Positions 1 through 24,150 of a stretch of 64,000 nucleotides of DNA are shown one piece after another. Each line of letters starts with the position of its first letter. Positions within the stretch are counted from its first letter, which is position 1. Below the pieces are notes generated by a model, which saw only the letters and a program-made list of their open reading frames with translations, was not told where the DNA came from and ran no database searches. Made by a program: the position numbers and the translations under genes. The stretch covers positions 378,730 through 442,729 of the forward strand of contig JACKDU010000002.1 of NCBI GenBank assembly GCA_020633335.1, written 5' to 3'. Source of the stretch: Myxococcales bacterium (GTDB taxonomy: Bacteria; Myxococcota_A; Polyangia; Nannocystales; Nannocystaceae).

Positions 1-3000
1 GCGGTTCAGATCGAGGTTCCACGGCCCCTCGGCGCTCCGCCAGAAGAAGCGCCCGCGGGTCACCGCGCCTGGCAGGCGGTGCTCGGCGATCGCCCAGAAC
101 GCGCCGGTGGCGTCGGTGGCGATCCGCACGACCCGGTGCTCGGCGATCCCCTCGACCGGCGCCCAGGCGTTCGGCCCGGGCTCGTAGCGGAAGATCACGC
201 CCTCGCCGTCGACCGCCGCGACCTGATCGCGCGACGCCGCGTCGAGGTGCTCAAAGCGCTGCGCCGCCCAGCTCGTCCAGGTCCCGTCGGCCTCGCGGCG
301 GTAGGGGATCCGGTCGGCGAGGATCCACGGGGTCCCATCGCCGCCGACCGAGACGTGGGTCGGCGCCGCCGGGGTCCCGATCACCGACCAGGTCCCGGAG
401 CCATCGCTCGCCCGCCGCAGGAGCTCGCCTCCCGAGTTGATCGCCCAGACGTCGAGCGCCGAGCCGACGGCGATGACGGCGATCTCGGTGTTGACGTCCG
501 AGGCCTCGATCATCGGCAGCCGCGCCGCCGGATCCTTGAAGAAGTGGAGGAGCGCCGAGACCATCCGCACCGCCTCGGTGATCCCGAGCTGCGGCATCGG
601 GAAGTGCGCGCCCGCGCCGATGTAGATCCCCTCGACCCCCTGCACCCGGAAGGCGAGCTTCTCGTAGAAGAGCGGGATCGGGATCGGGATCTTGGTCGCG
701 GTGACCACGAACATCATCAGATCCTCGATCACCAGCTGGCGGAGCATCGCGCTCCCCTGCGGGATCCACTGGTTCGGCGGGATCACCATGCCGGCGGCGA
801 TCGTGAAGGGATCGAAGACGTCGATCGTCGCCGTCGTCTGGAGCGAGACCAGGTTCCCGCCGAGGAGCATGCCGACCGAGAGGCGGCTCATCGACACGCC
901 GATCAGGAGCGGGAACATCGGCGTCATGTTCCAGTAGGGCAGGAAGAGGCGCAGCGGCCGATCCTCGTCGCCCCAGATGTTGATCGAGAAGTTGGTCTCG
1001 CCGCGGTAGACGACGTCGAACGAGAGGGTTCGCGGGACCTCGATGCTGAGGTAGTCCTTGAACGCGTCCGGGAGCCGCTCCGTGAATTCGGCGACCGCCT
1101 CCAGGGGCGGCTCCAGGAGCGCGAGGAGCCCCTCGGGGAGCGCGAGGCCGACCCCCGAGGCGAAGGAGGCGCAGTACTCGACGACCTTGCGGGCGGCGAG
1201 CTTCCCCTCCTCGTCGTAGAGCCGGACGTCCATCGCCGGGATCTTGGTCGGCAGTCGCGCGGCGACGTCGCCGAGCCCGAGGAGCCCAAGGAGGGCCTTG
1301 GCGTGGACGAGCGGGATCGCGAAGTCTCGGGTGACCCGCATCCCGCCGGTCGCCGCCAGGCCGCCGTCCTTGCTGGTGAAGGTCGGGATGTCGACTTCGA
1401 AGGCCCCGAACTCGCCGAGGTCGACGTACCAGACCCCGTCCTGGATCACCAGGAAGGTCACCGGCGAGTTCTTGAGGCGGAGGATGAACTTCGCCTTGTT
1501 GTCGGCGCCGGTGCCGACGCCGATCTCGAAGTCGATCGTCGAGGTCAGCGGCTGCTGCGGGTTGAAGGTCCGGAAGATGTTGGCCCGCGGCTGGTCGTTC
1601 TCGTCGACCCCAAAGATCCGGTTGACGCCCGCGGGGAGGCCGAGCGAGACGGTGAGCGTCCCCTCGGGCTTCTTCTTGAGGATCTTCGCGCTCAGCTCGC
1701 GGAGGTGGAGGCGCGTGGTCCCGAGCTTGCTCGTCTCGATCACCACGCCGGCGCCGAGGTCGAGGTTCGGGAGGGCGATGTCGAGGGGCTCGAGGATGTT
1801 CGTCGCCTTGAGGATGAGCCCCTCCTTGGTCCCCTTGAGCTCGCCCGTGACCTTGCGCGGGAAGCAGGCGTAGCGGTGGACCCACTCCGGGAGGCCGAGG
1901 AGCGCGAGCGACACCTTCGCCTCGATCTCGTAGGTCTTCTTGTCGCCGTCGATCTTCTGGGTGAGCGCGATGCGCGGCGCCGAGATCCGGATCTTGAGCC
2001 CGGATCCGACCTCGATCGGGATCTCGAAGTAGGACGCCTGATCCATCGTCAGCGCGAGGAAGCGGCGCTTCTCCTCGTCGGCGATCTCGAGGGTCATGTT
2101 GACGTCGACGATGTCGAGGAAGCGGACGCCGCTGCTCACGCTGAGCGACACCTCGAGGCGATCGTCGTCGTCGTCCGCGTCGACCGGCTTGGCCAGGGTG
2201 AGGATCACCTGGGTCGCCTTGATCGCCGCGACCTCGAAGATGTCGAGGAGGGTGCGGCCCGAGTCACCGAGCTGGCCAAAGAGCGTGAGCTTGCGCTTGC
2301 CGTCCTTGACCTCGTAGCCGGCCGAGAGCGCGAGCGAGACCCCGAGGATCGAGGTGCTGAGGCCGCCGCCGACCGCCCAGCTCCTCTCGATCGTCTTCTT
2401 CTTGGTCTCCTCGTCGGTCTTCTCGGTCTCCTGGTAGGCGAAGGCGAGCTCGACGCTGCCGACGCTGAGGCCGGGCACCACCTCGACCGGCCCGAGCGCC
2501 CCGAGGGTGATCGCGCACTTCTTCGGGTGATTCGGCCCGCCGCCGCGCTCGTAGACCAGGCGCGCCGTCGCCGTCAGGTCCACCCCCTCGATGCGCAGGA
2601 AGGTCACCGCGTCGCCGCTGACCTTGAGCGCGCCGTCGCTGAGGTCGAGCGACACCTCGACGTTCTTCAGGGTCACCTTGGGTACCTCCGGCGGCAGGGC
2701 GACGCCGCCCAGGAGGGCGCTGAGGATCGCCGTTATCGGCACCGAATCGACGCTCGCGCTGAAGACCGTCGATCCCTCCTCGGCGAGGAGGAGCACGCAG
2801 AGCTCGCCGAAGTAGAGGGTCGGCCCGCGCCCGTCCGTGGCCGCGCGGTAGTGGGCCATCACGTTCTCGGGAGCGAGCTGGCGGTCGAAGATCGCGACCG
2901 GCCCGATCTTCCCCTGGTAGTGGCGTGCGCCGCCGTAGCCCGCGCCGATCCGCAGGTCCTTGGTCGGCGTGAGGAGGCCGTAGCTGGTGCTCTCCTCGGT

Positions 3001-4833
3001 GATCAGGACGCCGTCGACGTAGAGGCGCTGCGAGCCCGATCGCGCGGCGACGACGACGTGGCGCCACTGATCGAGGGGGAGGGTCGAGACCACCGGGAGC
3101 TCGACCTTCTCGTCGTCGGCGCCGGTCGTGAAGATCCGGATCTTCTTCTCGTCGTCGTTGTTGCAGTGGAGGAAGAGGAAGGCCTCGTCCGCGGCGGCGA
3201 CCACCGCCTGCGTGTCCCATGAGCTCCGGCCGCTGCAGATCCAGGCCTCGACCGTGAGCTCGGTGCCGCCGCCCCACTCGCCGTCGAGGCGGACCTCGCC
3301 GGTCTTTCCGTCGAGCTCGAGGCAACGGAGGCCGACCAGGCCCTCGGCGTCGGTGACCGTGACGGCGCCGTGGAGGGCGCCCGTGCGCGCGGCGTCCGTG
3401 ACATCGCGGGCGATCCCGCCCTCGGTCGACCGCCAGTTGAAGAAGGCGACCGGCCCGTCGGCGAGGACCGCCTCGTCGTAGGTGCCCGGGGCCGCCTCTT
3501 CCCGGACCTCATCCGAGCTCCCCTCGTCGAAGCCGAGGTGGGCCCGGATCTCGGCCGGCGTCAGGGCCCGGGCGTAGATCGCCAGCGGACCGATCCGCCC
3601 GGCGAAGAAGCGGCCGTAGCCATAACCGCTGCCGACGTGAACGATCGACGAGGGCACGATCTCGTTGAAGGCGCACGCGGTCTCGGAGCGGACGACGCCG
3701 TCCTCGACGATCGTCACCGTCCCCGGACGGACGATGAGCACGATGTGCCGCCAGACGCCGATCGGCGCCGGCGAGAGCACCGGCACCAGAGAGTAGCCCG
3801 CGTCGGTGTAGATCGCGTTGCGATAGCCCGGGTCATCGCTCATCTGGAGGTGGACAAACTCGCCGCCGACCGCCGAGACGATCGCCTGGCCCTCGGGACC
3901 GCCGCGGGCGCTCCAGACCCAGACCTCGACGGTCAGCTCGCCGCCCTCGCCGGCCCAGCTCCCGTCGAGGACCACCCGGCCGCTCCCGTCGAATTCGAGG
4001 CTCTTTGTCCCCTCGATCGGCCCCGCGGCGCCGACCCGGACGCCGCCCTCGAGGGTCCCGCGGCGGCCGTGCGAGCTCTGATCAGCGATCGCCGTGCCGG
4101 CGACCTCGCCCATCGGGAAGTACGCGATCGGTTGATCGCCGAGGACCCTCGCCGCGTAGATCGTCGCGTCAACCGTCGGCAGGCCGAGGTGCCCACGGAT
4201 CGCGGCGACGCTGAGGGCCCGGTCGTAGATCGCCAGCGGACCGATCCGGCCGGCGAAGAAGCGGCCGCCCCCCCAGCCGCAGCCGATCCGGAGGAGGCTG
4301 GTCGGCCGGAGATCGGTGAAGGTCACGGCGGTCTCGGAGCGGACGACGCCGTCCTCGACGATCGTCACCATCCCCGGGCGGACGATGAAGGCGATGTGCC
4401 GCCAGACCTCGAGGGGCAGCGGCGAGAGCACCGGGACCATGTGGTCACCGTTGTCGGCGTAGAGCGCGTTGCGATAGCCGGGGTCCTCGCTCATCTGGAG
4501 GTGGACGAGCTCGGTCGTCGTCGACGAGACAATCGCCTGGCCCTCGGATCCGCCGCGGATCCCACGGACCCAGACCTCGATCGTCAGCTCGCCCCCACCG
4601 CTCGCCCAGCTCCCCTCGAGGGCCACGTGCCCGCTGCTCCCGTCGAGCTCGAGGCTCTTGCCCCCCGGAATCGGCCCCTCGGCGCCGAGGGTGACGCCGC
4701 CGACGATCGCCCCTCGGCGCGCGTTCGGGCTCGAGTCGACGATCGCCGCGCCGGCGACCTCGGTCATCTCAAAGAAGGCGATCGGCCGATCCGCGAGGAC
4801 CTTCGGCGAATACGAGGACACATCGATTTCCAT
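1..4833 (-). CDS. Giant multidomain lectin-like protein (at least 1611 aa; 3' end runs off window start). The N-terminal part has repeated concanavalin-A-like/LamG jelly-roll modules (GSWAGEGGELTVEVWV...GQAIVS...VHLQMSDDPGYRNAIY...VWRHIxxIVRPG, repeated three times). The C-terminal part has tectonin-like beta-propeller repeats (DVWAINSGGELLRR..DGSGTWSVIG; GTPWILADRIPYRREADGTWTSW)
   Basis: I translated the reverse complement by hand. The frame has high GC3, an ATG at 4833 preceded by GGGAGTGGGA about 5 nt upstream, and an in-frame TGA 7 codons upstream of that. The track lists no complete ORF in this frame, as expected for one ORF that leaves the window. The overlapping + strand ORFs 79-3222 and 3370-4860 are D/R/E/G/H-rich antisense shadows. 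Domain calls rest on motif recognition only. Confidence 0.7.
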   Translation of the reverse strand, partial: MEIDVSSYSPKVLADRPIAFFEMTEVAGAAIVDSSPNARRGAIVGGVTLGAEGPIPGGKSLELDGSSGHVALEGSWASGGGELTIEVWVRGIRGGSEGQAIVSSTTTELVHLQMSEDPGYRNALYADNGDHMVPVLSPLPLEVWRHIAFIVRPGMVTIVEDGVVRSETAVTFTDLRPTSLLRIGCGWGGGRFFAGRIGPLAIYDRALSVAAIRGHLGLPTVDATIYAARVLGDQPIAYFPMGEVAGTAIADQSSHGRRGTLEGGVRVGAAGPIEGTKSLEFDGSGRVVLDGSWAGEGGELTVEVWVWSARGGPEGQAIVSAVGGEFVHLQMSDDPGYRNAIYTDAGYSLVPVLSPAPIGVWRHIVLIVRPGTVTIVEDGVVRSETACAFNEIVPSSIVHVGSGYGYGRFFAGRIGPLAIYARALTPAEIRAHLGFDEGSSDEVREEAAPGTYDEAVLADGPVAFFNWRSTEGGIARDVTDAARTGALHGAVTVTDAEGLVGLRCLELDGKTGEVRLDGEWGGGTELTVEAWICSGRSSWDTQAVVAAADEAFLFLHCNNDDEKKIRIFTTGADDEKVELPVVSTLPLDQWRHVVVAARSGSQRLYVDGVLITEESTSYGLLTPTKDLRIGAGYGGARHYQGKIGPVAIFDRQLAPENVMAHYRAATDGRGPTLYFGELCVLLLAEEGSTVFSASVDSVPITAILSALLGGVALPPEVPKVTLKNVEVSLDLSDGALKVSGDAVTFLRIEGVDLTATARLVYERGGGPNHPKKCAITLGALGPVEVVPGLSVGSVELAFAYQETEKTDEETKKKTIERSWAVGGGLSTSILGVSLALSAGYEVKDGKRKLTLFGQLGDSGRTLLDIFEVAAIKATQVILTLAKPVDADDDDDRLEVSLSVSSGVRFLDIVDVNMTLEIADEEKRRFLALTMDQASYFEIPIEVGSGLKIRISAPRIALTQKIDGDKKTYEIEAKVSLALLGLPEWVHRYACFPRKVTGELKGTKEGLILKATNILEPLDIALPNLDLGAGVVIETSKLGTTRLHLRELSAKILKKKPEGTLTVSLGLPAGVNRIFGVDENDQPRANIFRTFNPQQPLTSTIDFEIGVGTGADNKAKFILRLKNSPVTFLVIQDGVWYVDLGEFGAFEVDIPTFTSKDGGLAATGGMRVTRDFAIPLVHAKALLGLLGLGDVAARLPTKIPAMDVRLYDEEGKLAARKVVEYCASFASGVGLALPEGLLALLEPPLEAVAEFTERLPDAFKDYLSIEVPRTLSFDVVYRGETNFSINIWGDEDRPLRLFLPYWNMTPMFPLLIGVSMSRLSVGMLLGGNLVSLQTTATIDVFDPFTIAAGMVIPPNQWIPQGSAMLRQLVIEDLMMFVVTATKIPIPIPLFYEKLAFRVQGVEGIYIGAGAHFPMPQLGITEAVRMVSALLHFFKDPAARLPMIEASDVNTEIAVIAVGSALDVWAINSGGELLRRASDGSGTWSVIGTPAAPTHVSVGGDGTPWILADRIPYRREADGTWTSWAAQRFEHLDAASRDQVAAVDGEGVIFRYEPGPNAWAPVEGIAEHRVVRIATDATGAFWAIAEHRLPGAVTRGRFFWRSAEGPWNLDLNR

Positions 4834-5086
4834 CGTCCCACTCCCAGCGACTCAGCGTGATGATCGAGCGCAGACGAGCGCCCCGATACACGCCGGCCGG
4901 GCCACGCTACCACGTCGAAATCGCGGCTCCGCGGGATCAAGAGCGCCCGCCGCACTCGCGCGAAGTCGCCTGCTCCGCACGAGAACGGCGTCTGCGGGCG
5001 TTCATGACGATCACCGAGAGCGACGTGCGTTCCCGCGACCGAGAGGACATGAACTTTAAGACATACTAAAAAGTGCAGGCACGGAG

Positions 5087-5118
5087 CGCGTCCGCGCGTC
5101 CGCGCGACCGCGCGACCC
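5087..5118. promoter_or_regulatory. Four tandem octamers CGCGTCCG CGCGTCCG CGCGACCG CGCGACCC in the divergent intergenic region, next to an unusually AT-rich patch (5050-5080)
   Basis: Seen directly; located 44-75 nt upstream of the CHAT-STAND start codon. Confidence 0.4.
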
Positions 5119-5161
5119 GCACGCTAGGTGATCCGCGTGCCGCGCGGCTACGATTGCGATC

Positions 5162-8100
5162 ATGGAGCCCCTCCACCTCCTCATCGAGCTCGTGCGCGCC
5201 GAGGACGCGGCCACGCAGCACGGCGCGAGGCCGGGTGACGAGCAGCTCTACCTGATGCGGGATCCCGACGACACCGGCCGCTACGCGGAGGGCTCCTTCC
5301 GGTGGACGCGGGCGGTCCAGGCCGACCTCGCGGCGCTCGCCGATCTCCGGGACTTCGAGGAGGCGGCGCTCCGCCTCGCCGCCCTCGTCGGGCGCTTCCT
5401 CGAGGACACGCCGTGGGCTCGCTACGCACCGCTCGTCGACGCGGCGATCGACGAGGGGCGCGGCGCGGTGATCACGATCCGCTCGGCAGCCGCCGAGCTC
5501 TACGCCCTGCCCTGGGAGTGGCTGCCCCTCGCGCAGGGCCCCGCCACCCGCGTGCCAGGGTGCGTCGTCCGCTACGACTGGCCCGACGATGAGCTCCGCG
5601 CGGATCGCCTCGTCGCTCCGGGCGAGGACGACCCCCTCGCGCGGACCGAGCCCCAGACCGCCGGGCGGATCGTCGTCGCCTGGTCCGCGAGGGCCGGCGC
5701 GGTGCCGGCGGCCGAGCACCTCCGGGCGATCAGCAGCGCCGCGAGCGAGGGTCGCCTCGACTTCGAATGGGACACCGACGTGATCGACCATGTCACCCGC
5801 GCGCGCCTCAAGGCCGCGCTGGACGCGAGTGACGACGTCGCCGTCCTCCACCTCCTCTGCCACGGCGTCCCGCTCCCGGGCGACGACGGCTTCGGGCTCG
5901 GGCTCGCCGACGACGAGGGCGGCCTCGACGTCGTCGCGCCGCGCGAGCTCGCGGAGCTCCTCCGCCCCCACGCCGCGACCCTCCGCCTGGTCGTCGTCCA
6001 GGCCTGCCAGAGCGGCAACACGGGCGGTCTCGAGTCCCACGCGGGGAGCGTCGCCCAGGCGATCCACCGCGCCGGGATCCCGGTGGTCCTCGCCTCCCGC
6101 TATCCCCTCTCCGTCGCCGGGTCGGTCCGGATCACCGAGCGCTTCTACCGCTCGCTCCTCGTCGATCTCCGCTCGACCGAGGCGGCGACCCTGGCGGCGC
6201 GCCAGGACGAGGTGGCGATCCCGGGGAGCTTCGACTGGGCGGCGCTCCAGCTCTACGCCGATCCCGAGGTCGGCCTCGAGAGCCGGCCGATCGCCTTCCG
6301 CCCCTTCCGCGGCCTCCTGCCCTTTGAGTCACGTCACGCCCGCTTCTTCTTCGGCCGCGACGATGACGTCGCGGCCCTCGTCGATCGCCTGGGCGCGCGC
6401 CTCCGCGAGGGCGGGCCCCGCCTCCTCCTGGTCGCCGGCGCGTCGGGCTCGGGCAAGTCGTCGCTGGTCCACGCCGGGCTCCTGCCGGCGCTCGCCAACT
6501 CCGCGCTCCCCGAGCTCCCGCACGACCCCGCGACCGACCTCGTCCTCTTCCGGCCGGGCGAGCGCCCCGACGATCCGCTCTCGCTCCTCCGCGAGCGCCT
6601 CGCCCGGGCCGCCGAAGCCGGCTCCGATCGCGCCGTCGTCGTCGTCATCGATCAGCTCGAGGAGCTCTTCACCGAGGTCGACGAGCCCGCGCGTACCAGC
6701 CTGACACGGGCGCTCTGGGGGCTCGCCACCGAGGGCCACGATGTCGTCGTGGCGACCGTGCGGATCGAGTTCATCGGCCGCTTCGGCGAGGTGCCGATGG
6801 ACGACGAGGGCCGCAAGTTCGACGCCGTCGCTCTCGACGAGCGCTTCCGCTACTTCGTCCGCCAGCTCGCGCCCGAGCAGGTCGACGCGATCATCCACGG
6901 CCCAGCCCGGGCGGTCGGCCTCCGCTTTGAAGACGGTCTCGTCGCCCGCCTCCGCGCCGACGTCGGCCGCGAGCCCGGGGCGCTCCCTCTCCTCAGCTAC
7001 ACCCTCGATCTCCTCTGGCAGCACCGCCGCGGCCGCTGGCTCAAGGACCAGACCTACGACGCGCTCGGCCGCCTGGTCGGGGCGCTGACGACGACCGCCG
7101 ACGACCTCTACGCGTCGCTCGGCGCTCCCGCCCGCCAGGCGCAGGCCGAGCGCCTCCTGGTCCAGCTGGTCCACATGGCCGAGGACCCGGCGATGGCGAC
7201 ACGGCGTCGCGGTCACCTCGATCGCCTGCGACCGGCCGCCGCCGCCGAGGGGGCCCACTTCGACGCGGCCGTCGACGCCCTGGTCGACGCCCGACTCCTG
7301 GTCCGCGGCTGCTCGAGCGACGAGCGCCGCGGCCTCGACCGGGCCTGGATCGAGATCGCCCACGAGGCGCTGATCCGCGGTTGGACCCGCCTCCAGACCT
7401 GGCTCCGCGAGTCCCGCGAGTGGCTCGACTACACCGATGATCTCCGGGCCTACGCCGAGGCCTGGTCGCCCCACCAGGGCGGGACGCGGGAGACCGACTA
7501 CCTCCTCACCGGCACCCGCCTCGCCTACGCGGCGGAGATGTGGTCGCGCCACGGCGCCCGCCTCGGCGCCGGCGACCAGCGCCTCCTCGGCGCCTTCGTC
7601 GAGCGCTGCACCGAGCGCGAGCGGGCCCGCCTCCGCGGCCGACGGGCGATCATCGGCGCGGTCTTCACGGCGATCTCGATCGCCGCGGTGATCGCGATCG
7701 TCCAGGCGATCGCGGCCGGGCGCGCGCGCGATGACGCTGAGGACAAGGCCCGGGTCGCGCGCGAGCAGACCGCGGTCGCCGAGGCGCAGACCGAGATCGC
7801 CGAGACCAAGACCGCGGAGGCCCTCGCCGAGGCGCGACGGGCCCGCAACGCGACCCGGCTCTCGGCCGCGCGCTCGCTCCTCACCCGCGATCCGACCGCC
7901 GCCGCCCTCATCCTCGCCGAGGTCGAGGCCGCTGAGCCGGTCCCGGGGCTCGAGGCGATCATTCGCTCCCTCACCGCCGACACGCAGGTGGCCGAGCGCG
8001 TCCTCGACTCCGGGGACGACATCTACTACCCGGAGAGCAGCGGCGACGGCCGGGTGATCGCCGTCCTCTACGGTGACGGCGTCGTCCGCCTCAGGGACGC

Positions 8101-10222
8101 GAACACCGGCGCACCGATGGCCGGGCCGCTGGCGCTCCGCGGCCCGGACGCGACCGGCCGCCTCACCCCCACCCCGCGCTACCTCCAGATCGTCGCCCTC
8201 TCCCCCGACGGAGCGGTCATCGCCACCGGGACCTGGGATGGCGACGTTCGGCTCTGGAGCGCCGCGGACGGCTCGCCGCTGGGCCCACCGCTCAAGCACG
8301 AGAGCGCGATCAAGGGCATCCTCTTCTCCCATGACGGGCGCACTCTCCTGACCTCGTCATGGAGTCGGAAGGCGCGCCTCTGGGACGCCCGCAGCGGCGC
8401 CTCCCTGGGTGAGCCGATGCCCGGCGAGGAGGCGTTCTTCTCCGCCGACGGCGCCGCGGTGATCACCACCTTCGCCGACGGCGTCCTCCGCTGGAGCGCG
8501 CACGACGGCGCGCCGCTCCCCCTCGAACGCGGCCGCAGCCAGACCCGCGAGGACGACGACCTGGTGGTCGTCCAAAGCTCCTTTGGGGGCAGCGGCGTCG
8601 CCCGGCGCTGGAACGCGACGACGGGTCGCTCGCTCGGGCCGCCGCTCGACCACGAGGGAGTGAAGCGCGCGTCGCTCGAGCGCGAGCAGGGCGTCATCAT
8701 CACCGTCTCGAACTCGGAGGTCCGCCTCTGGCGCGCCCAGACCGGCGAGGCGATCGGCCCGCCGATCACCTACGACGAGGTCCGCGACGAGGTGATCTAC
8801 GGCCTCCGCACCGCCGCGCTCTCGCGCGACGGCGAGCTCGTCTTGACGCTCGATGGCTTCGACAACATCCGCCTCTGGGAGGCGCGCTCGGGGGCCCCCT
8901 TCGGCCTGCCGATGCGCCACGAGAACGTCGAGCTCGCCGAGTTCTCGAGCGACGGCGCGTCGATCATCACGGCCGCCGTGGACGGCTCGATCCGCCGCTG
9001 GCCAGTGGGCCTCCGTCGTGGCCGCGTGATGACCCACGACGCCCTCCTCGCCCCGCGAGAGGAGCGCGAGTTCCGGCGGATCGTCGAGGACGCGCGCCTC
9101 GCCGGCGACGGGAGCAGACTCGTCACCGCGTCCTGGGACGGCAGCGCCCAGCTCTGGAGCGCGAGCACTGGCGAGCCGATCGGCGAGCCGATGCTCCATG
9201 AGAGCTCCGTCTCGAGCGCGGCGTTGTCCCCGGACGGCAGCCGCGTCCTCACGGCGAGCGGGGACCGCAGCGCCCGCCTCTGGGACGCGCGCTCGGGCGC
9301 GCCGATCGGCGAGCCGATGCTCCATGAGAGCTCCGTCTCGAGCGCCGAATTCTCCGCGGACGGCGCGATGCTTGCGACCGCGTCAGAGGATGGGTGCGCG
9401 CGGATCTGGAGCGGCACCACCGGCGCAGCGATCGGCGAACCGCTCCTCCACCCCGGACAGGTCCGCTCAGCCAGCTTCTCGCCGGACGGCCGCTCGCTCG
9501 TCACCGTCGCTACCGACATGAACGCCCGCGTGTGGAGCCTCGACGCTGGCGCGCTCCGCTTCCCCCCGATCACCCACGAGGACAAGCGCGTGACCGTGGC
9601 CCGCTTCTCCCCCGACGGGAAGGTGATCGCCACCGGCTCCGTCGAGTCCACGGCGCGCCTCTGGGACGCCGCCACGGGGGCGGCGATCGGCGACCCGATG
9701 ACGCACGAGGATCAGGTCCTCGACGTGCGCTTCTCCCCGCGCGGGGACCTCCTGGCCACCGGATCCATCGACGGGACCGCGCGGCTCTGGGACGCGCGCT
9801 CGGGCGCGCCGCTTGGCGAGCCGATCACCACCGACGGGCTCGGCCACAACGTCGCCTTCTCGCCAGACGCGCGGACGCTCCTCACCTCCGGAATCGGCGA
9901 CACCGCACAGCTCTGGGACGTGCGCACGCGCGAGCAGATCGGGCGCACGCTCACCCATGACGCGGGGATCGAGAGCGCCCGCTTCTCCCCCGATGGGCGG
10001 CTGGTCCTGACGGCCTCGAGCGACGGCAGCGCCCGCCTCTGGGACGCCGCCACCGGCGAGTCCCTGATGGAGGCGATGTGGCTCCGCTACCTCCGCGCCA
10101 ACGTCCGCGGCTGCCTCCCCCGCGACGCCCGGGTCGAGCACCTCGGCGTGACGAGCGAGCAGGCCGCCGCCGACTTCGCGGCGTGCGAGGCCCGCCAGAC
10201 CGACGCCGGCGCGCCGCCCTGA
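5162..10222 (+). CDS. CHAT (caspase-like) protease, STAND P-loop NTPase, single TM helix, coiled coil, and about 14 WD40 repeats in one 1686-aa protein
   Basis: The ORF track translation shows LPWEWLPL, HLLCHG (His) and VVVQACQSGN (Cys), which are the CHAT hallmarks. The Walker A is GASGSGKSSLV and the Walker B is VVVIDQLEELF. A hydrophobic helix IIGAVFTAISIAAVIAIVQAIAA lies at about aa 822-845, followed by an A/E-rich coiled coil. Repeated xRLWDAxxG and SPDG WD40 blades run from about aa 930 to 1640. Confidence 0.9.
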   Translation: MEPLHLLIELVRAEDAATQHGARPGDEQLYLMRDPDDTGRYAEGSFRWTRAVQADLAALADLRDFEEAALRLAALVGRFLEDTPWARYAPLVDAAIDEGRGAVITIRSAAAELYALPWEWLPLAQGPATRVPGCVVRYDWPDDELRADRLVAPGEDDPLARTEPQTAGRIVVAWSARAGAVPAAEHLRAISSAASEGRLDFEWDTDVIDHVTRARLKAALDASDDVAVLHLLCHGVPLPGDDGFGLGLADDEGGLDVVAPRELAELLRPHAATLRLVVVQACQSGNTGGLESHAGSVAQAIHRAGIPVVLASRYPLSVAGSVRITERFYRSLLVDLRSTEAATLAARQDEVAIPGSFDWAALQLYADPEVGLESRPIAFRPFRGLLPFESRHARFFFGRDDDVAALVDRLGARLREGGPRLLLVAGASGSGKSSLVHAGLLPALANSALPELPHDPATDLVLFRPGERPDDPLSLLRERLARAAEAGSDRAVVVVIDQLEELFTEVDEPARTSLTRALWGLATEGHDVVVATVRIEFIGRFGEVPMDDEGRKFDAVALDERFRYFVRQLAPEQVDAIIHGPARAVGLRFEDGLVARLRADVGREPGALPLLSYTLDLLWQHRRGRWLKDQTYDALGRLVGALTTTADDLYASLGAPARQAQAERLLVQLVHMAEDPAMATRRRGHLDRLRPAAAAEGAHFDAAVDALVDARLLVRGCSSDERRGLDRAWIEIAHEALIRGWTRLQTWLRESREWLDYTDDLRAYAEAWSPHQGGTRETDYLLTGTRLAYAAEMWSRHGARLGAGDQRLLGAFVERCTERERARLRGRRAIIGAVFTAISIAAVIAIVQAIAAGRARDDAEDKARVAREQTAVAEAQTEIAETKTAEALAEARRARNATRLSAARSLLTRDPTAAALILAEVEAAEPVPGLEAIIRSLTADTQVAERVLDSGDDIYYPESSGDGRVIAVLYGDGVVRLRDANTGAPMAGPLALRGPDATGRLTPTPRYLQIVALSPDGAVIATGTWDGDVRLWSAADGSPLGPPLKHESAIKGILFSHDGRTLLTSSWSRKARLWDARSGASLGEPMPGEEAFFSADGAAVITTFADGVLRWSAHDGAPLPLERGRSQTREDDDLVVVQSSFGGSGVARRWNATTGRSLGPPLDHEGVKRASLEREQGVIITVSNSEVRLWRAQTGEAIGPPITYDEVRDEVIYGLRTAALSRDGELVLTLDGFDNIRLWEARSGAPFGLPMRHENVELAEFSSDGASIITAAVDGSIRRWPVGLRRGRVMTHDALLAPREEREFRRIVEDARLAGDGSRLVTASWDGSAQLWSASTGEPIGEPMLHESSVSSAALSPDGSRVLTASGDRSARLWDARSGAPIGEPMLHESSVSSAEFSADGAMLATASEDGCARIWSGTTGAAIGEPLLHPGQVRSASFSPDGRSLVTVATDMNARVWSLDAGALRFPPITHEDKRVTVARFSPDGKVIATGSVESTARLWDAATGAAIGDPMTHEDQVLDVRFSPRGDLLATGSIDGTARLWDARSGAPLGEPITTDGLGHNVAFSPDARTLLTSGIGDTAQLWDVRTREQIGRTLTHDAGIESARFSPDGRLVLTASSDGSARLWDAATGESLMEAMWLRYLRANVRGCLPRDARVEHLGVTSEQAAADFAACEARQTDAGAPP

Positions 10223-10226
10223 TCGC

Positions 10227-11498
10227 CTAGCGACCCGCGCACTCGACTTCGTGCGCGGCGCAGCGGAAGCGGACGTGGAGGTGGATGTCATGCCCGGGCG
10301 AGTGGCGGATGAGCCCGCGCGGCGCCTTCGATCCCCGCGGGAACTGGATCACCCGCCGCAGCTCGCTCCGCGAGATCCCGGCCTCCTTCGCCGCCTTGTA
10401 GAGCCGCTTCTGGATCGCGTAGTCGAGGAAGATCCTCGTGATCTCGCCGCTCGCCTCAAACGACCGCACCAGCTCCCAAACCGCCATCCAGTCGACCCGC
10501 CGCGGGAGCGGATCGAGGTCCTGCCGGAGCTCGGCGCGGAGCGGCAGGCGGATGTCGAGATCGCGGCCGTTCTGATGCGAGAGGTGGCCGCCGATCTTGC
10601 GACCGCGCTGCCGGCTCATCGCCCCGAGGGTCAGCCGCCCCTCGTAGCCGGTCGCCTCGCGCCAGGCGTGGAGCGCCGTCACCGTCGCCCGGACCGCGCT
10701 CGTCGTCCCCCAGGCCGAGGCGGGGTAGCGGAGCTCGTAGTCCTCGCCCTCGGGGATCTGGACGCCGTTGATCAGGCGCCCGGCGTGCGGGCGACCGCTC
10801 GCGAAGGCTCCCGGGCGGATCGTCCCCGCCAACCCGGGCGGCGGCGTGTCGCCGGTGATCGCCGCGTAGAGCGGCGGATCGATCCAGACCTCGAGCTCGA
10901 CGCCCGGCCGCAGGCGCCGACCGACGCGCTTCGCGTTGGCGACCCGGAGGTCGCTGGCGTCGACGCCGTAGGCCCGACCGATCGAGCTCCAGCTCTCGCC
11001 CTCGATCACCAGGTGGCGCCGGAGCTCGCGCGGCGGCGGCGTCCGCCGGGCGAGGATCCGCAGGCGCTGCCCGGGGCGGATCTTCGCCCGCGCCCCGAGC
11101 CCGTTCCAGGCCCGGATCTTCCCGGGATCGACGCGGTAGCGGAGCGCGAGCGCGGCGATGTCCTCGGCCGGCACGACCTCATGCATCACCCAGGTCTTGC
11201 CCTCCTCGCTCTCGTCGTCGCCCGCGTCCTCGTCCTCGTCCTCGTCCTCCGCGTCCGTCGACCCGTCGACCCCGTCGAGCACGCCGTCCTCTCCCGGCTC
11301 CTCGCCCTCGCTCTCGCCGCCCTCCTCGGCCTCGTCGCGCTCGGCTTCCGCCACGCTCGGGGGCGCGCCCTCCTCCGCGATCGCGCGCCGCCAGGCGCTC
11401 ACGAGCTCCGCGTCGGGATCGACGAGCCCCGTGAGGACCAGGCCCAGGGCGATGAGGAGGCGGAGGAACACGAGCGCCCTGGGACGATAGCGCAGCAT
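10227..11498 (-). CDS. LysM-domain murein endopeptidase (penicillin-insensitive MepA/M74-like) with N-terminal signal/TM and acidic linker
   Basis: Signal/TM segment LVFLRLLIALGLVLTGLV. Two LysM-like segments (HEVVPAEDIAALALRYRVDPGKIRAWNGL; HLVIEGESWSSIGRAYGVDASDLRVANAK). M74-like His motifs GHLSHQNGRDLDI and HSPGHDIHLHVRF. Confidence 0.8.
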   Translation of the reverse strand: MLRYRPRALVFLRLLIALGLVLTGLVDPDAELVSAWRRAIAEEGAPPSVAEAERDEAEEGGESEGEEPGEDGVLDGVDGSTDAEDEDEDEDAGDDESEEGKTWVMHEVVPAEDIAALALRYRVDPGKIRAWNGLGARAKIRPGQRLRILARRTPPPRELRRHLVIEGESWSSIGRAYGVDASDLRVANAKRVGRRLRPGVELEVWIDPPLYAAITGDTPPPGLAGTIRPGAFASGRPHAGRLINGVQIPEGEDYELRYPASAWGTTSAVRATVTALHAWREATGYEGRLTLGAMSRQRGRKIGGHLSHQNGRDLDIRLPLRAELRQDLDPLPRRVDWMAVWELVRSFEASGEITRIFLDYAIQKRLYKAAKEAGISRSELRRVIQFPRGSKAPRGLIRHSPGHDIHLHVRFRCAAHEVECAGR

Positions 11499-12586: not shown

Positions 12587-14094
12587 TAGCGCATGATCTC
12601 CTCGGCGAGGACCGCGTCGTCGTCGAGCGAGCGGAAGAGCTTGGTCTTGAGCTTGCCCTTCGACGAGGTCAACGCCGTCGCCATCCGATCGATCGCCGTC
12701 GTCGCCATCACCGTCTGGATATAGGCCTCGATCAGATCGTCGATCCCGAGGCCGAGGGTGTTGAAGTCCTTGCGGTCCATCAGGAGGAGGCGCGCGTGGT
12801 CGGAGTCGAAGCTCCCGTCCGCGAGCTTGATCGAGAGGTTGGTCCCGAGGATGTCCCAGCTCGGCGAGCCCGGGACCAGCTCGTCGACCAGCGGCGTCCG
12901 GGCCCGACGGGCGTAGATCACCAGCGGCCGGAAGCCCTCGGGGCCGCCGCTCACCATCATCCGAAGATCGGCGACGTAGGCCTCGCCCTTGCGGTTGGGG
13001 ATCGTGCCGACGTGGTAGAGGCGCCCCTGCGAGCTCCGCGAGCTCCACTTGTGGTTGCCGATCAGGCTCTGGACGATGTAGCGCTCGTAGTGGCGGGGCG
13101 CGTCCGCGAGGAAGGCGTCGAGCTCGGCCTGCGAGGTGATCGTGTAGACCCCCTGGCCGGCGTTCGAATAGGGCACCTTGATCACCGCGTGGCCGCCGAG
13201 GCGGCGGATCCAGAGCGGGATCTCGTCCCAGGTGACGTCCCAGATCGTCTCGGGGGTGCGGATCTGGAGGCCGGTGCCGTCGAGCTCGGCGTTGTAGAGA
13301 TCGTAGGCCTTGGCGGCGACCAGCTTGTTGCGGCCGCCGGCGAGGCAGGTCAGCACCGGGTTGAGGATCACCGTCTTGGTCGCCACTGGGATCCGGTTCC
13401 AGGGGCGCTGGGTCACGTAGCGGAAGGCGCAGCGGATCGGCCGCCACTCGTCGCCCTCGGGCCGGACCTGCAGGACCCCGTCGACGAAGCGGGCCCGCGG
13501 CGCGTAGGGGCGATCGGGGAACTCGACGAGGTGGACCGGCTCCTGCAGGAGATCGGCGAGGGCGGCCGCGTAGCCCGAGGCCTCCATGTAGTTCTTGTCG
13601 TAGATCACCGCGAGCTCGCCGGGCGGGAGCTGGCGCCCGCGCACCGTCGGCAGGAAGCCGTTCTCGAGGTTGATCCGGTAGCCGCCCTGCTCGTCGTGCT
13701 CCTCGTAGAGGGGCATCGACTTCTGCCCCGAAGGACAGGAGTTGGTCTCGACGATCACCATCTGCCGGTTGCCGCCGGCGGTCGTCGCGTGGAGGAGGTC
13801 CGAGCCCGCCCAGCGGAAGTAGCGGGGCTGAGTGGTCAGCAGGGCCCGCAGGGCGGCGGCGTCGACCTGCGGGTTGAGGTGGACGTAGCGGGCGATGATC
13901 CGCTCGTTCCCGAGGTTGAGGAAGAAGCGGACCAGCGGGTGGATCTGGGCGTTGAGCACCCGCGCGTAGAAGTGGCGCTCGGGCTCAAAGGATCCCGGCG
14001 AAACCAGCGAATACGCGGGCTCACGGGGCGGGGTCGGCGGGCTCTCGGCGGGGGGCGGGGCGAGTGCGTCGGGCGGGGCGGGTGCGTCGGCCAT
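12586..14094 (-). CDS. ATP-grasp-like amide ligase family protein (function unassigned), Pro-rich N-terminus
   Basis: 502-aa ORF with protein-like composition. Motifs compatible with an ATP-grasp fold are [47 protein letters not shown] and [11 protein letters not shown]. The stop overlaps the start of the downstream AstE-family gene. Confidence 0.7.
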
Positions 14095-14121: not shown

Positions 14122-14559
14122 CTACCACTCGCCCTGGCTCGGCATCGACGCCCAGGGCTCGCGCGGCGCCAGCGCTCCGCCCCGCTGCAGGAGCTCGATC
14201 GAGATCTGGTCGGGCGAGCGCACGAAGGCCATCCGCCCGTCACGCGGCGGCCGCAGGATCGTCACACCGGCCGCCTGCAGGCGCTCGCAGAGCGCGTAGA
14301 TGTCGTCGACCTCGAAGGCCAGGTGGCCGAAGTTGCGCCCGCCGGAGTAGGGCTCGGTCTCGTCCCAGTTGTGGGTGAGCTCGACCTCGGCCGCGTCGCC
14401 CTCGGCGCCCGTGCCGAGGTAGATCAGCGAGAAGCGGCCCTGCTCGTAGTCGTGGCGGCGGACGACCCGAAGGCCGAGCTTGCCGACGTAGAAGTCGAGG
14501 CTTGCGTCGAGATCGAGGACCCGGACCATCGTGTGGAGGAAGCGCATCGGCCCGTTCAT
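14122..14559 (-). CDS. gloA: Glyoxalase I / lactoylglutathione lyase (VOC family)
   Basis: [20 protein letters not shown]...ELTHNWD...[28 protein letters not shown] is a typical GloA sequence; 145 aa. Confidence 0.8.
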
Positions 14560-14603: not shown

Positions 14604-15848
14604 ATGATGCCGCCCATGGTTCGCTCGGCCCTCGCCGTCGCCCTCACCCTCCCCCTCACGCTCGCCGGCTGCTCGATCTTCTCGGGCCTCTTCAAGACCA
14701 ACGCGTCGACCTCGACCAACGCCGGCGGCGGCGGTGGTGGTGGCGGCGGCGGGGCGGCCCCCAGCGATCCCCAGAAGGAGCGGGAGGCCGAGCTCTCCGA
14801 GGCCCACCGGCGCCTCGCCAGCGAGCTCGACGCCTCCCGCCAGGAGATCGCCGAGGCCGGGGTCGACAGCACCCGGGCGCTGCGCTTCGCCGACCTCACC
14901 CTCAAGGCCTACGAGAGCGAGGCGGTCGCCCGCGGGCGGATCGACGGGCCGGTCGTCGCCCAGGAGGCGCTCGGCTACCTCGCCCAGGCGAAGGAGGCCG
15001 AGCCGGCGGCGACCGTCGATCTGGCGAGCGCGGCCGGGTCGATCCACGCCCGCCTCGGCGACGCCGACGCGGCCGGGGCGAGCTTCGCCGAGGCGATCGC
15101 CGCCGAGCCGCGGGTCGACCTCTTCAACGCCCTCGCCGGCCTCTCCGCCGGCGGAGCGAACGACACGCGGGTGGTCGAGGCCTGCCCAAAGGTGCGCCCG
15201 CAGGTGAGCGACGACGCCCTCCCCGACTTCATGGCGATCTGCCTCGACCGCGCCGGCGGCGACGCCAAGCGCCTGAGCTGGAAGGGCTCGAAGCAGGACC
15301 TCGCGGCCTACCAGGCGGAGATGCGCCGGCGCGAGGAGGAGGCCAAGCGCCGCGAGGCCGAGGAGGCCAAGCGCCGCGAGGAGGAGGCCAAAGAGGCCGC
15401 CCAGCGCGAGCTCTACGCGGTCGCCGCGGTCTTCGCCGCCGGCCGCTGCGAGTTCGGCGACTGCGCCCACCGGGGCTGGAGCGTCCGCACCGATCAGGGC
15501 GAGGTCCGGGTCTCCTGCTCCTTCGGCGACTGCCTCACCCGCGGCTGGGAGGCCCGCTTCCCCGACGGCAAGAGCGCGCGCACCGACTGCTCCTTCGGCG
15601 AGTGCCTCCAGCGCGGCTGGGAGACCCGCTTCCCCGACGGCTCGACCGCCCGGACCTCCTGCTCCTTCGGCGAGTGCGCGACCCGGGGCTGGGAGACCCA
15701 CCTCCCCGACGGCTCGACCAGCCGGACCACCTGCTCCTTCAGCGAGTGCTTCACCCGCGGCTGGGAGACCTCGCTGCCGAGCGGCGGCTCGATCCGCTGC
15801 ACCTGCTCCTTCGGCGAGTGCCTGACCCGCGGCACCGAGTGCAACTAG
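14604..15848 (+). CDS. Lipoprotein with N-terminal TPR-like/helical region, a Glu/Arg/Lys-rich coiled segment and 5.5 C-terminal tandem 24-aa Cys-rich repeats
   Basis: Signal peptide with lipobox LTLAGC followed by a poly-Gly linker. The repeats follow the pattern CSFGEC(L/A)TRGWETxFPDGSxxRTx. Confidence 0.8.
15436..15846 (+). repeat. Tandem 72-bp coding repeats (about 5.5 copies) encoding CSFGECxTRGWExxFPDGSxxRTx
   Basis: The repeated peptide units are visible in the ORF translation, and gctccttcggcgagtgc..cgcggctgggagacc units recur in the DNA. Confidence 0.8.
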
Positions 15849-17166: not shown

Positions 17167-17889
17167 ATGTCAGGCCCCCGCTCGCCCCGCCCCGGCGCCC
17201 TCGCGCTCGTCCCCCTCGTCGCCGCGCTCGCCTGCAGCGGCGGCGAATCGGCCGACAAGCCGACGACCCGGGTCGATCCCCCGAAGAGCGCCAGCCCCAG
17301 CGCCGAGGCGGCCCCGGCGAGCGCGACCGCGGAGAAGGCCCCCGACGCCCCGAAGCCCGGCGCAGACGCCGACGCCGACGCCGACAAGGACGGCCGCTTC
17401 ACCAGCAGCGACGGCCTGGTCAGCGCCCCCCGGCCGCGCGGCGAGGGCTGGGAGTGCGAGGAGCGGGTCGCCCGCCCGCCGGATCCGGAGACCACCCTGA
17501 TCAAGTGCCGGCAGACCACCCCCGGCCGCTTCTTCTTCTTCATGGCCAAGGACTACGCGGTCCCCGAGGAGCAGATCCGGAGGCCCGAGGGGATCGTCCG
17601 CGAGGTCCTCCCGCGGACCTACGACAAGCTCTACGAGAGCTACACCTTCACCCGCGAGGAGCCGGTGCTGGTCGCCGGGAACGCCGGGATCGACCTCTGG
17701 ATCGACGCCGTCCACGCCAAGACCGGGCCGATCCGCAAGCGCGAGCGGGTCCTCACCCAGGGCCAGCACGTCTTCATCCTCTCCGCCGAGGGGCTCCCCC
17801 CCGACTACGAGGCCGAGGAGGCGGCGATCGACGCCTGGCTCACGGGCGCGGCGTTCAAGAACCTCACCGAGGCGCCCGCCGCTCCCTGA
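17167..17889 (+). CDS. Lipoprotein of unknown function (paralog of 19193-19915)
   Basis: I used the internal ATG of track ORF 16567-17889. Signal peptide with lipobox LVAALACSG. Shares FTSSDGLVSAPRPRGEGWEC...TLIKCRQ...RFFFFMAKD...LPRTY...IRKR...SAEG...IDAW with the paralog. Confidence 0.75.
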   Translation: MSGPRSPRPGALALVPLVAALACSGGESADKPTTRVDPPKSASPSAEAAPASATAEKAPDAPKPGADADADADKDGRFTSSDGLVSAPRPRGEGWECEERVARPPDPETTLIKCRQTTPGRFFFFMAKDYAVPEEQIRRPEGIVREVLPRTYDKLYESYTFTREEPVLVAGNAGIDLWIDAVHAKTGPIRKRERVLTQGQHVFILSAEGLPPDYEAEEAAIDAWLTGAAFKNLTEAPAAP

Positions 17890-18059
17890 CCCAAAGGACA
17901 GAGAGAGCGCCGCCGATCCCCCCGAGCCCCCGGAGACCCCCCGGAGGCCCCCGGAGGCGTCCGCGCCCAGGCCCCCGGGAGCGGGCGCCCCGCCCCGCCG
18001 CCGCCGGGCCGCGATTCCTCCTTGACCCGCTCGCCCGTCGCCCCAACACTCCTCGGCCG

Positions 18060-19145
18060 ATGGGCGCCGAAGCGCAGCCGTCGAGCCTCGAGGAGCTCGG
18101 CTGGGACGATCGCTGGGCGGCCGCCCTGGCCGACGCCGGGGTCGCCGGCGCGCCCGCGCGGGTGGCGATCGTCTACCAGGACCGCCTCGCGGTGGTCGAC
18201 GGCGCCAGGACCCGCTGGGCCGAGCTCCGCGGCCGCCTCCGCCGGCGCCTCGGCGACGATCCGGCCCACACCCCGGCGGTCGGCGACTGGGTCGTGATCG
18301 CCGACAACCCGGGCGGCGGGATGGCGACGGTCGAGGCGATCCTGCCCCGAAGGACCTGCCTCATCCGCCAGGCCGCAGGGCGCCGCACGGCCCCCCAGGT
18401 CGTCGCCGCCAACGTCGACACGATCTTCGTCGTCACCTCGCCGAACCGCGACTTCAGCCCCCGCCGGGTCGAGCGCTACCTCGCGGCGATCGCCGACGGC
18501 GGGGCCGCGGCCGCCGTCCTCCTCAACAAGATCGACCTCTGCGAGGGCGAGCTCGCCCGCTGGGTCGCCGAGCTCGAGGCGGTCGCCGGCGACGCGCCGG
18601 TCCACCCGCTCTCGGCGACCAGCGGCGCCGGCCTCGACGCCCTCGCCCCCTACCTCGGGCGCGGCCGCACCCTCGCCTTCGTCGGCTCCTCCGGGGTCGG
18701 CAAGTCGTCGCTGATCAACCACCTCCTCGGCGCCGAGCGCCAGGCGGTCGCCGAGATCCGCGAGGAGGACGACAAGGGCCGGCACACCACCACCCACCGC
18801 GAGCTGATGGCGATCGACGGCGGCGCCGGCGGCCTCGTGATCGACACCCCGGGGATGCGCGAACTCCAGCTCTGGACCGACGAGCCGGCGATCGGCGGGA
18901 CCTTCGAGGACGTCGAGGCGATCGCCGCCGGCTGCCGCTTCCGCGACTGCAAGCACCGCGGCGAGCCCGGCTGCGCGGTCGTCGCGGCGGTCGCCGAGGG
19001 CCGCCTCGCCGCCGAGCGCCACGCCGCCTTCCTCAAGCTCGCGGCCGAGCAGAGCGCCCACCAGCGCCAGCGCGCGGGCTCGGCCCGGATCGCCTCGCGC
19101 CGGCGCGCCCGCCTAGCCCGCGCCGACGGCGACGTCGAGGGCTAG
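18060..19145 (+). CDS. rsgA: Ribosome small-subunit-dependent GTPase A (RsgA/YjeQ)
   Basis: Internal ATG of track ORF 17454-19145. Circularly permuted GTPase motifs LNKIDL, GSSGVGKSSLIN and DTPG, plus the zinc finger CRFRDCKHRGEPGC. Confidence 0.9.
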   Translation: MGAEAQPSSLEELGWDDRWAAALADAGVAGAPARVAIVYQDRLAVVDGARTRWAELRGRLRRRLGDDPAHTPAVGDWVVIADNPGGGMATVEAILPRRTCLIRQAAGRRTAPQVVAANVDTIFVVTSPNRDFSPRRVERYLAAIADGGAAAAVLLNKIDLCEGELARWVAELEAVAGDAPVHPLSATSGAGLDALAPYLGRGRTLAFVGSSGVGKSSLINHLLGAERQAVAEIREEDDKGRHTTTHRELMAIDGGAGGLVIDTPGMRELQLWTDEPAIGGTFEDVEAIAAGCRFRDCKHRGEPGCAVVAAVAEGRLAAERHAAFLKLAAEQSAHQRQRAGSARIASRRRARLARADGDVEG

Positions 19146-19153
19146 CCCGATCG

Positions 19154-19175
19154 ACCTGTCCTCTCGGACATCTCC
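19154..19175. repeat. REP-like element ACCTGTCC-tctc-GGACATCTCC (reverse complement of the 15858 element)
   Basis: In the 47-nt convergent gap between rsgA and the paralogous lipoprotein gene. Confidence 0.6.
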
Positions 19176-19192
19176 ATCCGCGCGCCGCGGGC

Positions 19193-19915: not shown

Positions 19916-19952
19916 ATCGGAGGTCAAGCGCCTGCTGGTAACCTCTGACTCG

Positions 19953-20906: not shown

Positions 20907-20973
20907 TCTGGGAGGCCGCGGCCCGGGCGAGCGCGGCGGGCGATTTCGCCCGCCCTCTGGTATCGTCCCGGCG

Positions 20974-22302: not shown

Positions 22303-22389
22303 CCCGGCGAGCGGCCGATTGTGACCCCGGCCCCGCGTCTGCCTCCGACCACCTGGCGCCCGCGACCTCCGGCGCGCTAGTCTCGCGGC

Positions 22390-24140: not shown

Positions 24141-24150
24141 TCCCGCGGCC

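Follow-up and report, generated by a model that had tools for sequence, protein, structure and literature searches.

We characterized one gene and its surroundings in a genome assembled from a Myxococcales bacterium (GCA_020633335.1, contig JACKDU010000002.1, positions 378,730 to 442,729 of the forward strand). The whole stretch of 64,000 nucleotides that was analyzed is referred to below as the window, and coordinates are given within it. The gene encodes a CHAT caspase-like protease, an nSTAND1 NTPase, a single predicted transmembrane helix and two WD40-type beta-propellers in one chain (hereafter the query). The side of the membrane on which its sensor half is likely to lie, and what the protein may do there, are the subject of this report. 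Its parts are as follows.

5162..10222, + strand: whole gene for the CHAT-nSTAND1-transmembrane-double WD40 propeller protein, 1686 aa, from the single open reading frame (ORF), the GC content at third codon positions (GC3) and collinear homologues
5426..6253, + strand: CHAT caspase-like protease domain, aa 89-364, with His234 at 5861-5863 and Cys282 at 6005-6007
6302..7474, + strand: nSTAND1 STAND NTPase, aa 381-771 (PF20703), with Walker A (aa 426-434) at 6437-6463 and Walker B (aa 493-501) at 6638-6664
7646..7720, + strand: single predicted transmembrane helix with an arginine-rich N-terminal flank, aa 829-853, from hydropathy, the Hessa scale and the structural model
7721..7993, + strand: charged Ala/Glu/Arg-rich linker ("stalk"), aa 854-944, predicted helical
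7994..9004, + strand: first, more degenerate beta-propeller, aa ~945-1281, from strands at residues 46-382 of model B (see below) and repeat parsing
9083..10045, + strand: second, canonical WD40 propeller of eight 42-residue repeats, aa ~1308-1628, from model B, Pfam WD40, Tandem Repeats Finder (TRF) and Foldseek
10067..10204, + strand: C-terminal three-helix cap, aa 1636-1681, from helices at residues 737-782 of model B, with Cys1651 at 10112-10114 and Cys1675 at 10184-10186

The reading frame is uninterrupted over 1686 codons from the ATG at 5162 to the stop at 10222 on the + strand, and its GC3 of 0.94, compared to an overall GC content of ~0.73 for the window, is as seen in true coding frames of the window. 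At E <1e-10 the 1686-aa protein matched more than 1600 database proteins, the best of which (P0001) shares 55% identity over 100% of its length, and dozens of homologues of 1550-1700 aa are collinear over 96-100% of the protein. Full-length collinear homologues mean that this is one gene and exclude both a frame error and a fusion of separate genes. A first-pass annotation, made from the sequence alone, had described a single 1686-aa chain with the order CHAT, STAND NTPase, helix and double WD40; both the single chain (by GC3 and the collinear homologues) and the module order (by Pfam, hydropathy and the structural model) hold. A look-up of the exact protein returned no entry, and scanning species-representative genomes with the protein by itself returned no relative. 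A metagenome-assembled contig of 1.8 kb (L005; GCA_020431225.1, JAGQIR010001115.1), however, carries a 600-aa gene fragment that matches aa 381-800 of the query, the 420 residues searched, at 100% identity, so that the same organism or a very close one has been sampled in fragments.

Profile searches recovered the CHAT and WD40 domains that had been proposed. NACHT fell below its cut-off (13.5 bits vs 26.7) and NB-ARC was absent from the Pfam listing even at E values up to 1, so that of the NTPase families named beforehand neither was recovered, and nSTAND1 was found instead. The Pfam CHAT profile (PF12770) matched aa 89-364 with 74-79 bits against a cut-off of 24, and the His/Cys dyad reported earlier is intact: H230, L232, H234 and G235 (HLLCHG) and A281 and C282 (QACQSG) are invariant in a 48-sequence alignment. 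The profile match, the dyad and a caspase-like fold place the domain in the CHAT family, and proteolysis is predicted. The nSTAND1 profile (PF20703, "Novel STAND NTPase 1") matched aa 381-771 with 306-310 bits against a cut-off of 27.1 (E 9e-91), spanning profile positions 1-374 of 379. In the same 48 sequences the Walker A motif G426-x2-G429-x-G431-K432-S433 (GASGSGKSS, G426-S434) and the Walker B residue D497 are invariant, and E500 and E501 are at least 90% conserved, in agreement with the STAND-type P-loop NTPase of the first-pass annotation. By fold, this domain matched Orc/Cdc6, NRC2, NLRP3 and MalT; compared by sequence to solved structures, aa 1-820 returned chance matches only, so that fold comparison was needed.

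The membrane helix of the query is a stretch of 25 uncharged residues at aa 829-853 (AIIGAVFTAISIAAVIAIVQAIAAG). Over a 19-residue window the Kyte-Doolittle maximum of 2.70 falls within it, and no other segment of the protein reaches 1.6. On the Hessa scale this segment has a summed insertion energy of -2.1 kcal/mol, compared to +8.2 for the next best one, and a value of -2.1 was reached by 9 of 1000 shuffles of the protein. Seven lysine or arginine residues flank the helix on its N-terminal side (ERCTERERARLRGRR) and three on its C-terminal side. One segment of bilayer length and a positive-inside charge bias, as expected of a single-pass membrane protein, were thus both found. The single hydrophobic segment agrees with the one transmembrane helix predicted in the first-pass annotation, and lies slightly downstream of the position given there (822-845).

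The structure was predicted in two overlapping parts. The model of aa 1-960, built from the 48-sequence alignment, has a mean predicted local distance difference test score (pLDDT) of 87.8 and a predicted template modeling score (pTM) of 0.82; in it CHAT and NTPase form a compact unit, and a long helix at aa 803-859 holds the hydrophobic segment. The stalk that follows has pLDDT values below 50 for aa 852-881 and of 70-81 for aa 890-940. The coiled coil that had been proposed after the membrane helix is accordingly not established, as this region is predicted to be helical but scores below 50 at aa 852-881. AlphaFold model B, of aa 900-1686, has a mean pLDDT of 85.7 and shows two propellers and the three-helix cap, with values mostly above 90 in the second propeller. 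The Pfam WD40 match scores 223 bits over many repeats, and parsing by WD dipeptides gave ~15-16 WD-like units; of the earlier count, the two propellers stand and the figure of about 14 blades does not. The best Foldseek matches of the propeller pair were 2ymu, a "highly repetitive" double propeller of Nostoc, and the tandem propellers of Apaf-1 (E ~1e-29). TRF detected a tandem DNA repeat at 9135-9450 with a period of 126 bp (1.8 copies at 86% matches and 2.5 copies at 74%), which corresponds to adjacent WD40 blades at aa ~1325-1430 and points to blades having recently been duplicated or gene-converted, as in the "highly repetitive" sensors of bacterial and fungal NLRs. The cap carries the consensus CLxPxxRxxYLGE followed ~20 residues on by CE, the cysteines being C1651, which is invariant in homologues, and C1675, which is at least 90% conserved.

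We assessed how far the helix extends among relatives. The NTPase domain matched 36,507 clusters at 50% identity (E <=0.001). Three sets were examined: the top 120 homologues plus the query (121 sequences); that set together with the best 150 cluster representatives of an exhaustive search, which gave 215 proteins of sufficient length; and a scan of species representatives that found at least 581 related loci, of which the best 80 were kept and 65 had an evaluable ORF. In 95 of the 121 sequences there is an uncharged hydrophobic stretch, which follows Walker A at a median distance of 396 residues. In the larger set the helix was present in 157 of 215 proteins, ~400 aa after Walker A, absent from 41 and borderline in 17. 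The species scan placed it at the same distance from Walker A in 55 of 65 nSTAND1 genes from six phyla, including Actinomycetota (29/29), Chloroflexota (17/18), Acidobacteriota (3/3), Myxococcota (3/8) and Cyanobacteria (0/3). It was found whatever the N-terminal module, for instance in P0079, named a kinase at its source, and in P0083 of Nitrosomonas, which has no effector, and it also occurs with TPR-like instead of WD40 sensors. The helix sequence itself is not conserved; hydrophobicity, position and the arginine-rich N-terminal flank are all that is kept. On a neighbor-joining tree of the NTPase domain (198 sequences), the helix-less state forms 25 separate groups and requires 24 parsimony changes from a helix-bearing root. 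The helix is therefore a family property and the majority state, not special to this gene. The first-pass annotation had taken the membrane-spanning form to be unusual, a view that these counts, and the presence of the architecture in an earlier catalogue (Kaur et al. 2021), do not bear out.

Because the NTPase needs nucleotide and the protein lacks a signal peptide, an orientation with the N-terminus in the cytoplasm is expected, and the family could be examined for traces of it. Across the 157 helix-bearing proteins, the 15 residues to either side of the helix contain on average 5.7 lysines plus arginines before it (N side) and 3.1 after it (C side); the N-terminal flank is the richer in 131 proteins, equal in 17 and poorer in 9 (Wilcoxon p 6e-14 for the first 121 sequences). 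A second trace concerns cysteines, since exported domains tend to avoid them unless paired. With the last 70 residues excluded, cysteine accounts for 0.375% of sensor-half residues where the helix is present and for 0.918% where it is absent, a 2.4-fold difference (Mann-Whitney p 3e-6), whereas the N-terminal halves are alike (0.83% and 0.96%). The third is the cysteine pair of the cap, scored in 83 homologues with a recognizable cap motif: both cysteines are kept in 51 of 54 proteins with the helix and in 7 of 24 without it (Fisher exact test; p 4e-9), and the two co-occur (p 4e-5). As related sequences are not independent, the neighbor-joining tree served as a control for ancestry, and in 21 of its 25 helix-less groups sensor-half cysteine exceeded that of the nearest helix-bearing relative (Wilcoxon p 3e-4). 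The pair is lost in approximately six helix-less groups. In the query, cysteines lie at 134, 233, 282, 717 and 816 before the helix, and only 1412 and the pair 1651/1675 follow it. Taken together, these statistics support well, if indirectly, a location of the propellers outside the cytoplasm in helix-bearing members, the query included; the C-terminal cap is probably disulfide-bonded. The earlier proposal that the two halves sit on opposite sides of the membrane thereby gains independent support from charge bias and cysteine statistics.

The gene stands alone in its neighborhood, divergent from a giant lectin-like gene as had been described. The adjoining features are these.

1-4851, - strand: giant Laminin_G_3/Tectonin protein, divergent, truncated by the window edge
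4852..5161, no strand: intergenic region shared with the divergent giant gene, without a coding-like small ORF
10227-11498, - strand: LysM and Peptidase_M74-like (murein endopeptidase) gene, convergent

The giant protein has three Laminin_G_3 domains and a Tectonin domain, and no obvious signal peptide. Its ortholog (56-57% identity) lies at 17592-25043 of the locus of the closest ortholog (L001), two genes away from the CHAT-STAND ortholog (55-56% identity), with an orientation and all other neighbors that differ from the window. As a partner linked to the family it was rejected, since a tblastn search over 85 fetched loci matched L001 only. Between the two genes at L001 (15338-17038) sits a 566-aa protein with no Pfam match that has caspase-like His/Cys motifs (TMSHGVG and FACFGAGT) and no counterpart in the window. 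A 196-aa gene called upstream of the L001 ortholog was also considered as a partner, but looks spurious, being Arg/Ser-rich and without any domain. On the downstream side, the stop codons of the CHAT-STAND and LysM/M74-like genes are only 4 nt apart, which leaves no room for separate terminators, and the peptidase gene is not conserved beside homologues.

No adjacent co-directional effector gene of the EACC1, Pepco, MBL or alpha/beta-hydrolase type was found, as the upstream neighbor is divergent and the downstream one convergent. Within the 310-bp spacer at 4852-5161, no stop-to-stop frame has a GC3 above 0.85, as coding frames of the window typically do, so no EACC1-, Pepco-, MBL- or hydrolase-type substrate gene lies there. 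Across four homologous loci no conserved partner gene was seen and no neighbor was held in common; one of the four adjoins an IS110 transposase and an integrase, and another adjoins VgrG and toxin-immunity genes. The rest of the window contains histidine kinases, peptidases, a penicillin amidase, DUF4215 proteins, and metabolic, housekeeping and signaling genes. The DUF4215 proteins include adjacent paralogues with cysteine-rich repeats at 27624-29249 and 29414-30952 (both - strand); along with the GC content of 73% and the closest homologues that bear names, they indicate a chromosome of Myxococcota. Two further genes, at 12589-14094 (- strand, 502 aa) and 14604-15845 (+ strand, 414 aa), have GC3 values of 0.96-0.98 and no Pfam or PADLOC match. 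Several homologues have glyoxalase-family genes and genes for B12-binding radical SAM proteins within a few kb (window 14125-14559, - strand; L002 16761-17186; L004 17249-17611; L001 6763-8184; L004 15182-17233), a recurrence that may be chance, as these genomes have many of both.

From the architecture and the family statistics we propose that the query would be a single-pass inner-membrane protein with its N-terminus inside and its C-terminus outside. The CHAT protease and an ATP-dependent STAND switch would lie in the cytoplasm, and the helical stalk, both WD40 propellers and the probably disulfide-bonded cap in the periplasm. The propellers may bind an envelope or periplasmic ligand, such as a component of a phage, of a competitor or of a damaged envelope, and binding would cluster the receptors. 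Clustering would in turn lead to nucleotide-dependent oligomerization of the cytoplasmic nSTAND1 modules, as in other STAND proteins, and activate the CHAT domains through induced proximity. The protease would then probably act in trans on host or invader proteins, as suggested by the lack of an adjoining dedicated substrate gene, and the outcome could be growth arrest, death or a regulatory signal. Induced proximity fits better than a fold-back lock because the membrane rules out the intramolecular lock of sensor on NTPase that operates in Apaf-1 and NLRs, and because the helix has switched about two dozen times with the rest of the architecture unchanged. As a whole, this picture of an inner-membrane, outside-sensing NLR-like receptor whose oligomerization activates a cytoplasmic protease appears moderately probable to us, and the protein may have a role in cell death or phage defense. 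Several components have precedents: an effector-less caspase-like protease is reported to defend E. coli and to need its catalytic cysteine for this (PMC12642450), Ser/Thr kinases carry predicted periplasmic WD40/TPR arrays behind one helix (PMC11032199), and the Myxococcus single-pass sensor DdvA, whose structure has been solved, has a CHAT domain (PMC11506125).

Several observations weigh against this picture. With respect to topology, the transmembrane call was made from hydropathy scales rather than with a trained topology predictor, and the C-terminal flank of the helix is positively charged as well. Approximately one fifth of the relatives are helix-less yet carry the same propellers, so the sensor can work in the cytoplasm and its ligand need not be specific to the envelope. 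Four to five helix-less groups keep the cysteine pair, and even and odd numbers of cysteines in the sensor half were equally frequent (47 vs 47), although an oxidizing compartment might impose a bias toward even numbers. With respect to function, PADLOC recognized only the CHAT part of the query and matched none of its eight neighbors within 10 kb, and the gene is not in a recognizable defense island.

Some of these points would also fit a protein that is cytoplasmic throughout, like Apaf-1, with a helix that serves oligomerization or peripheral attachment and does not cross the membrane. The ~20% of relatives that lack the helix and the absence of an even-number cysteine bias agree with such a protein, and the characterized STAND and NLR proteins are generally known to be cytoplasmic, with sensors that contact the NTPase. 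We nevertheless consider it very improbable, as the helix comprises 25 residues, none of them charged, has a negative predicted insertion energy and is the only such segment of the protein, is kept in position and not in sequence across six phyla, and shows a strong positive-inside bias, and as cysteine depletion and retention of the cysteine pair both track it.

A different alternative leaves the topology as proposed and changes the mode of activation. Apaf-1 and NLRs are held inactive by the sensor folding back on the NTPase, which the membrane would prevent here; removal or unfolding of the periplasmic propellers might instead free the NTPase-protease half to oligomerize, by analogy with the regulated intramembrane proteolysis of anti-sigma factors. 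DdvA, which joins one membrane helix and a bulky periplasmic domain with a proposed proteolytic release, would be a model for such shedding, and the low-confidence stretch just after the membrane helix may be flexible. However, the gene is not linked to one for a site-1 or site-2 protease, nothing points to a cleavage site, and helix-less relatives with the same propellers argue for a mechanism independent of the membrane. We judge activation by shedding to be rather unlikely.

The setting of the gene bears on a further possibility, namely that a receptor of the same architecture and topology serves envelope, social or predation signaling in the myxobacterium instead of immunity or suicide, with CHAT as a protease of limited, regulatory action, for instance on a transcription regulator, on the model of Craspase acting on Csx30 or of the proposal for DdvA. 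An ordinary chromosomal position among histidine kinases, peptidases and metabolic genes would suit such a role, as would the lack of a match between either the gene or its neighbors and a PADLOC defense system. Myxobacteria and Planctomycetes hold many single-pass receptors with outward WD40/TPR arrays, and CHAT proteases with narrow regulatory substrates are known. Against it stand the enrichment of the family in conflict-system contexts (Kaur et al. 2021), the integrases, insertion sequence (IS) elements or toxin-immunity genes that adjoin some homologues, the pairing of actinobacterial members with the pore-forming effector EACC1, and the recent blade duplication in the sensor, which fits diversifying recognition. 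A signaling role of this kind is possible, in our view, if doubtful.

Taken alone, the query adds little, since it is a typical member of a catalogued family, and the interest lies at the family level. What is new here is the sequence evidence for an extracytoplasmic sensor half, consisting of the charge bias, the cysteine depletion and the cysteine pair; these statistics make an outward-facing sensor a concrete and directly testable hypothesis. To our knowledge, no characterized STAND or NLR protein has a membrane between sensor and switch. Whether the nSTAND1 clade as a rule consists of trans-membrane NLR-like receptors, in tens of thousands of clusters from Actinomycetota, Chloroflexota, Myxococcota and other phyla, seems to us about evenly balanced. 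If it does, the repeat sensor would survey the periplasm or the cell-wall space and the NTPase and effector would stay cytoplasmic, so that nSTAND1 proteins would be closer in their mode of action to Toll-like or receptor-kinase receptors than to cytosolic NLRs. Activation would then proceed without the autoinhibition by sensor on NTPase seen in every STAND studied so far, and repeated gain and loss of the helix (about two dozen switches among 198 sequences) would shift one and the same sensor from compartment to compartment. An outward-facing sensor would give bacteria an abundant class of NLR-type receptors that watch the envelope rather than the cytoplasm.

The closest known proteins are those of Kaur, Burroughs, Iyer and Aravind (2021; eLife 10:e70394), who defined the nSTAND1 clade and named caspase as one of its effector partners. 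In the source data of their Figure 2, "nSTAND1+TM" occurs 412 times and "CASPASE+nSTAND1+TM+BetaPropeller" 63 times (TM, transmembrane), with AUG75452.1 of Kitasatospora (preceded by EACC1) and BBD52759.1 of Planktothrix (stand-alone) as examples, and the main text does not discuss topology. The query has this architecture (CHAT at 89-364, nSTAND1 at 381-771, helix at 829-853 and propellers at 945-1628) and shares with the catalogued proteins the four modules, their order, the helix and PF20703; like some of them, it is stand-alone. It differs in being of myxobacterial type, with at most 55% identity to anything in the databases searched, and in lacking the upstream EACC1 effector gene of the actinobacterial example. 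Close relatives are named "nSTAND1 domain-containing NTPase" or "CHAT domain-containing protein" at NCBI. The query is thus an ordinary member of a family that was catalogued, helix included, in 2021. As one kind of sensor fused to Pepco-associated proteases, Evans et al. (2025) name "transmembrane STAND ATPases", and in a systematic study of prokaryotic WD40 proteins membrane topology is not taken up. We found no literature on CHAT and WD40 proteins in myxobacteria, and no paper on the topology of, or an experiment with, any CASPASE+nSTAND1+TM+BetaPropeller family member.

Defense systems with related parts differ in several respects. Avs1-5 and bacterial NACHT proteins likewise combine an effector, a STAND NTPase and a repeat sensor in one chain, and some Avs proteins carry protease effectors. 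Avs sensors, however, are cytoplasmic and bind phage terminase or portal, whereas the query sensor is predicted to lie outside the cytoplasm. No PADLOC Avs model matched the query, for which only SAVED_CHAT (the protease part) and weak mad8 and mad3 P-loop matches were returned; with an nSTAND1 domain and NACHT under its cut-off, the label "Avs-like" of the first-pass annotation does not hold. SAVED-CHAT of type III CRISPR and Csx29 TPR-CHAT (Craspase) use cyclic oligoadenylate filaments or RNA-guided Cas7-11, not STAND, and both are cytoplasmic with dedicated substrates.

DdvA of Myxococcus xanthus (PDB 8rot), a transmembrane anti-sigma factor with TPR-CHAT that is implicated in phage defense, resembles the query as a single-pass myxobacterial envelope sensor with CHAT. 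Its topology is reversed, the CHAT domain being periplasmic; it has neither NTPase nor WD40, and its output is the release of a sigma factor of the extracytoplasmic function (ECF) class. We rejected the query as an anti-sigma factor of the DdvA type, since it has no anti-sigma domain, which in that type is N-terminal and zinc-binding, and its CHAT lies on the arginine-flanked (cytoplasmic) side. The single-pass Ser/Thr kinases of Planctomycetota and Myxococcota with C-terminal WD40/TPR arrays share the predicted topology and a cytoplasmic ATP-using enzyme; their output is a kinase, compared to a STAND switch and protease in the query. The Apaf-1 apoptosome, an animal AP-ATPase with tandem 7- and 8-bladed propellers that activates caspase-9, likewise has a STAND NTPase followed by two WD40 propellers and is coupled to a caspase-fold protease. 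In the query the NTPase is nSTAND1 and not NB-ARC, the protease is fused and not CARD-recruited, and a predicted membrane helix parts the sensor from the NTPase, so that the sensor could not fold back. The nearest functional analogies would therefore appear to be Apaf-1 for the list of parts and the single-pass WD40 Ser/Thr kinases for the topology.

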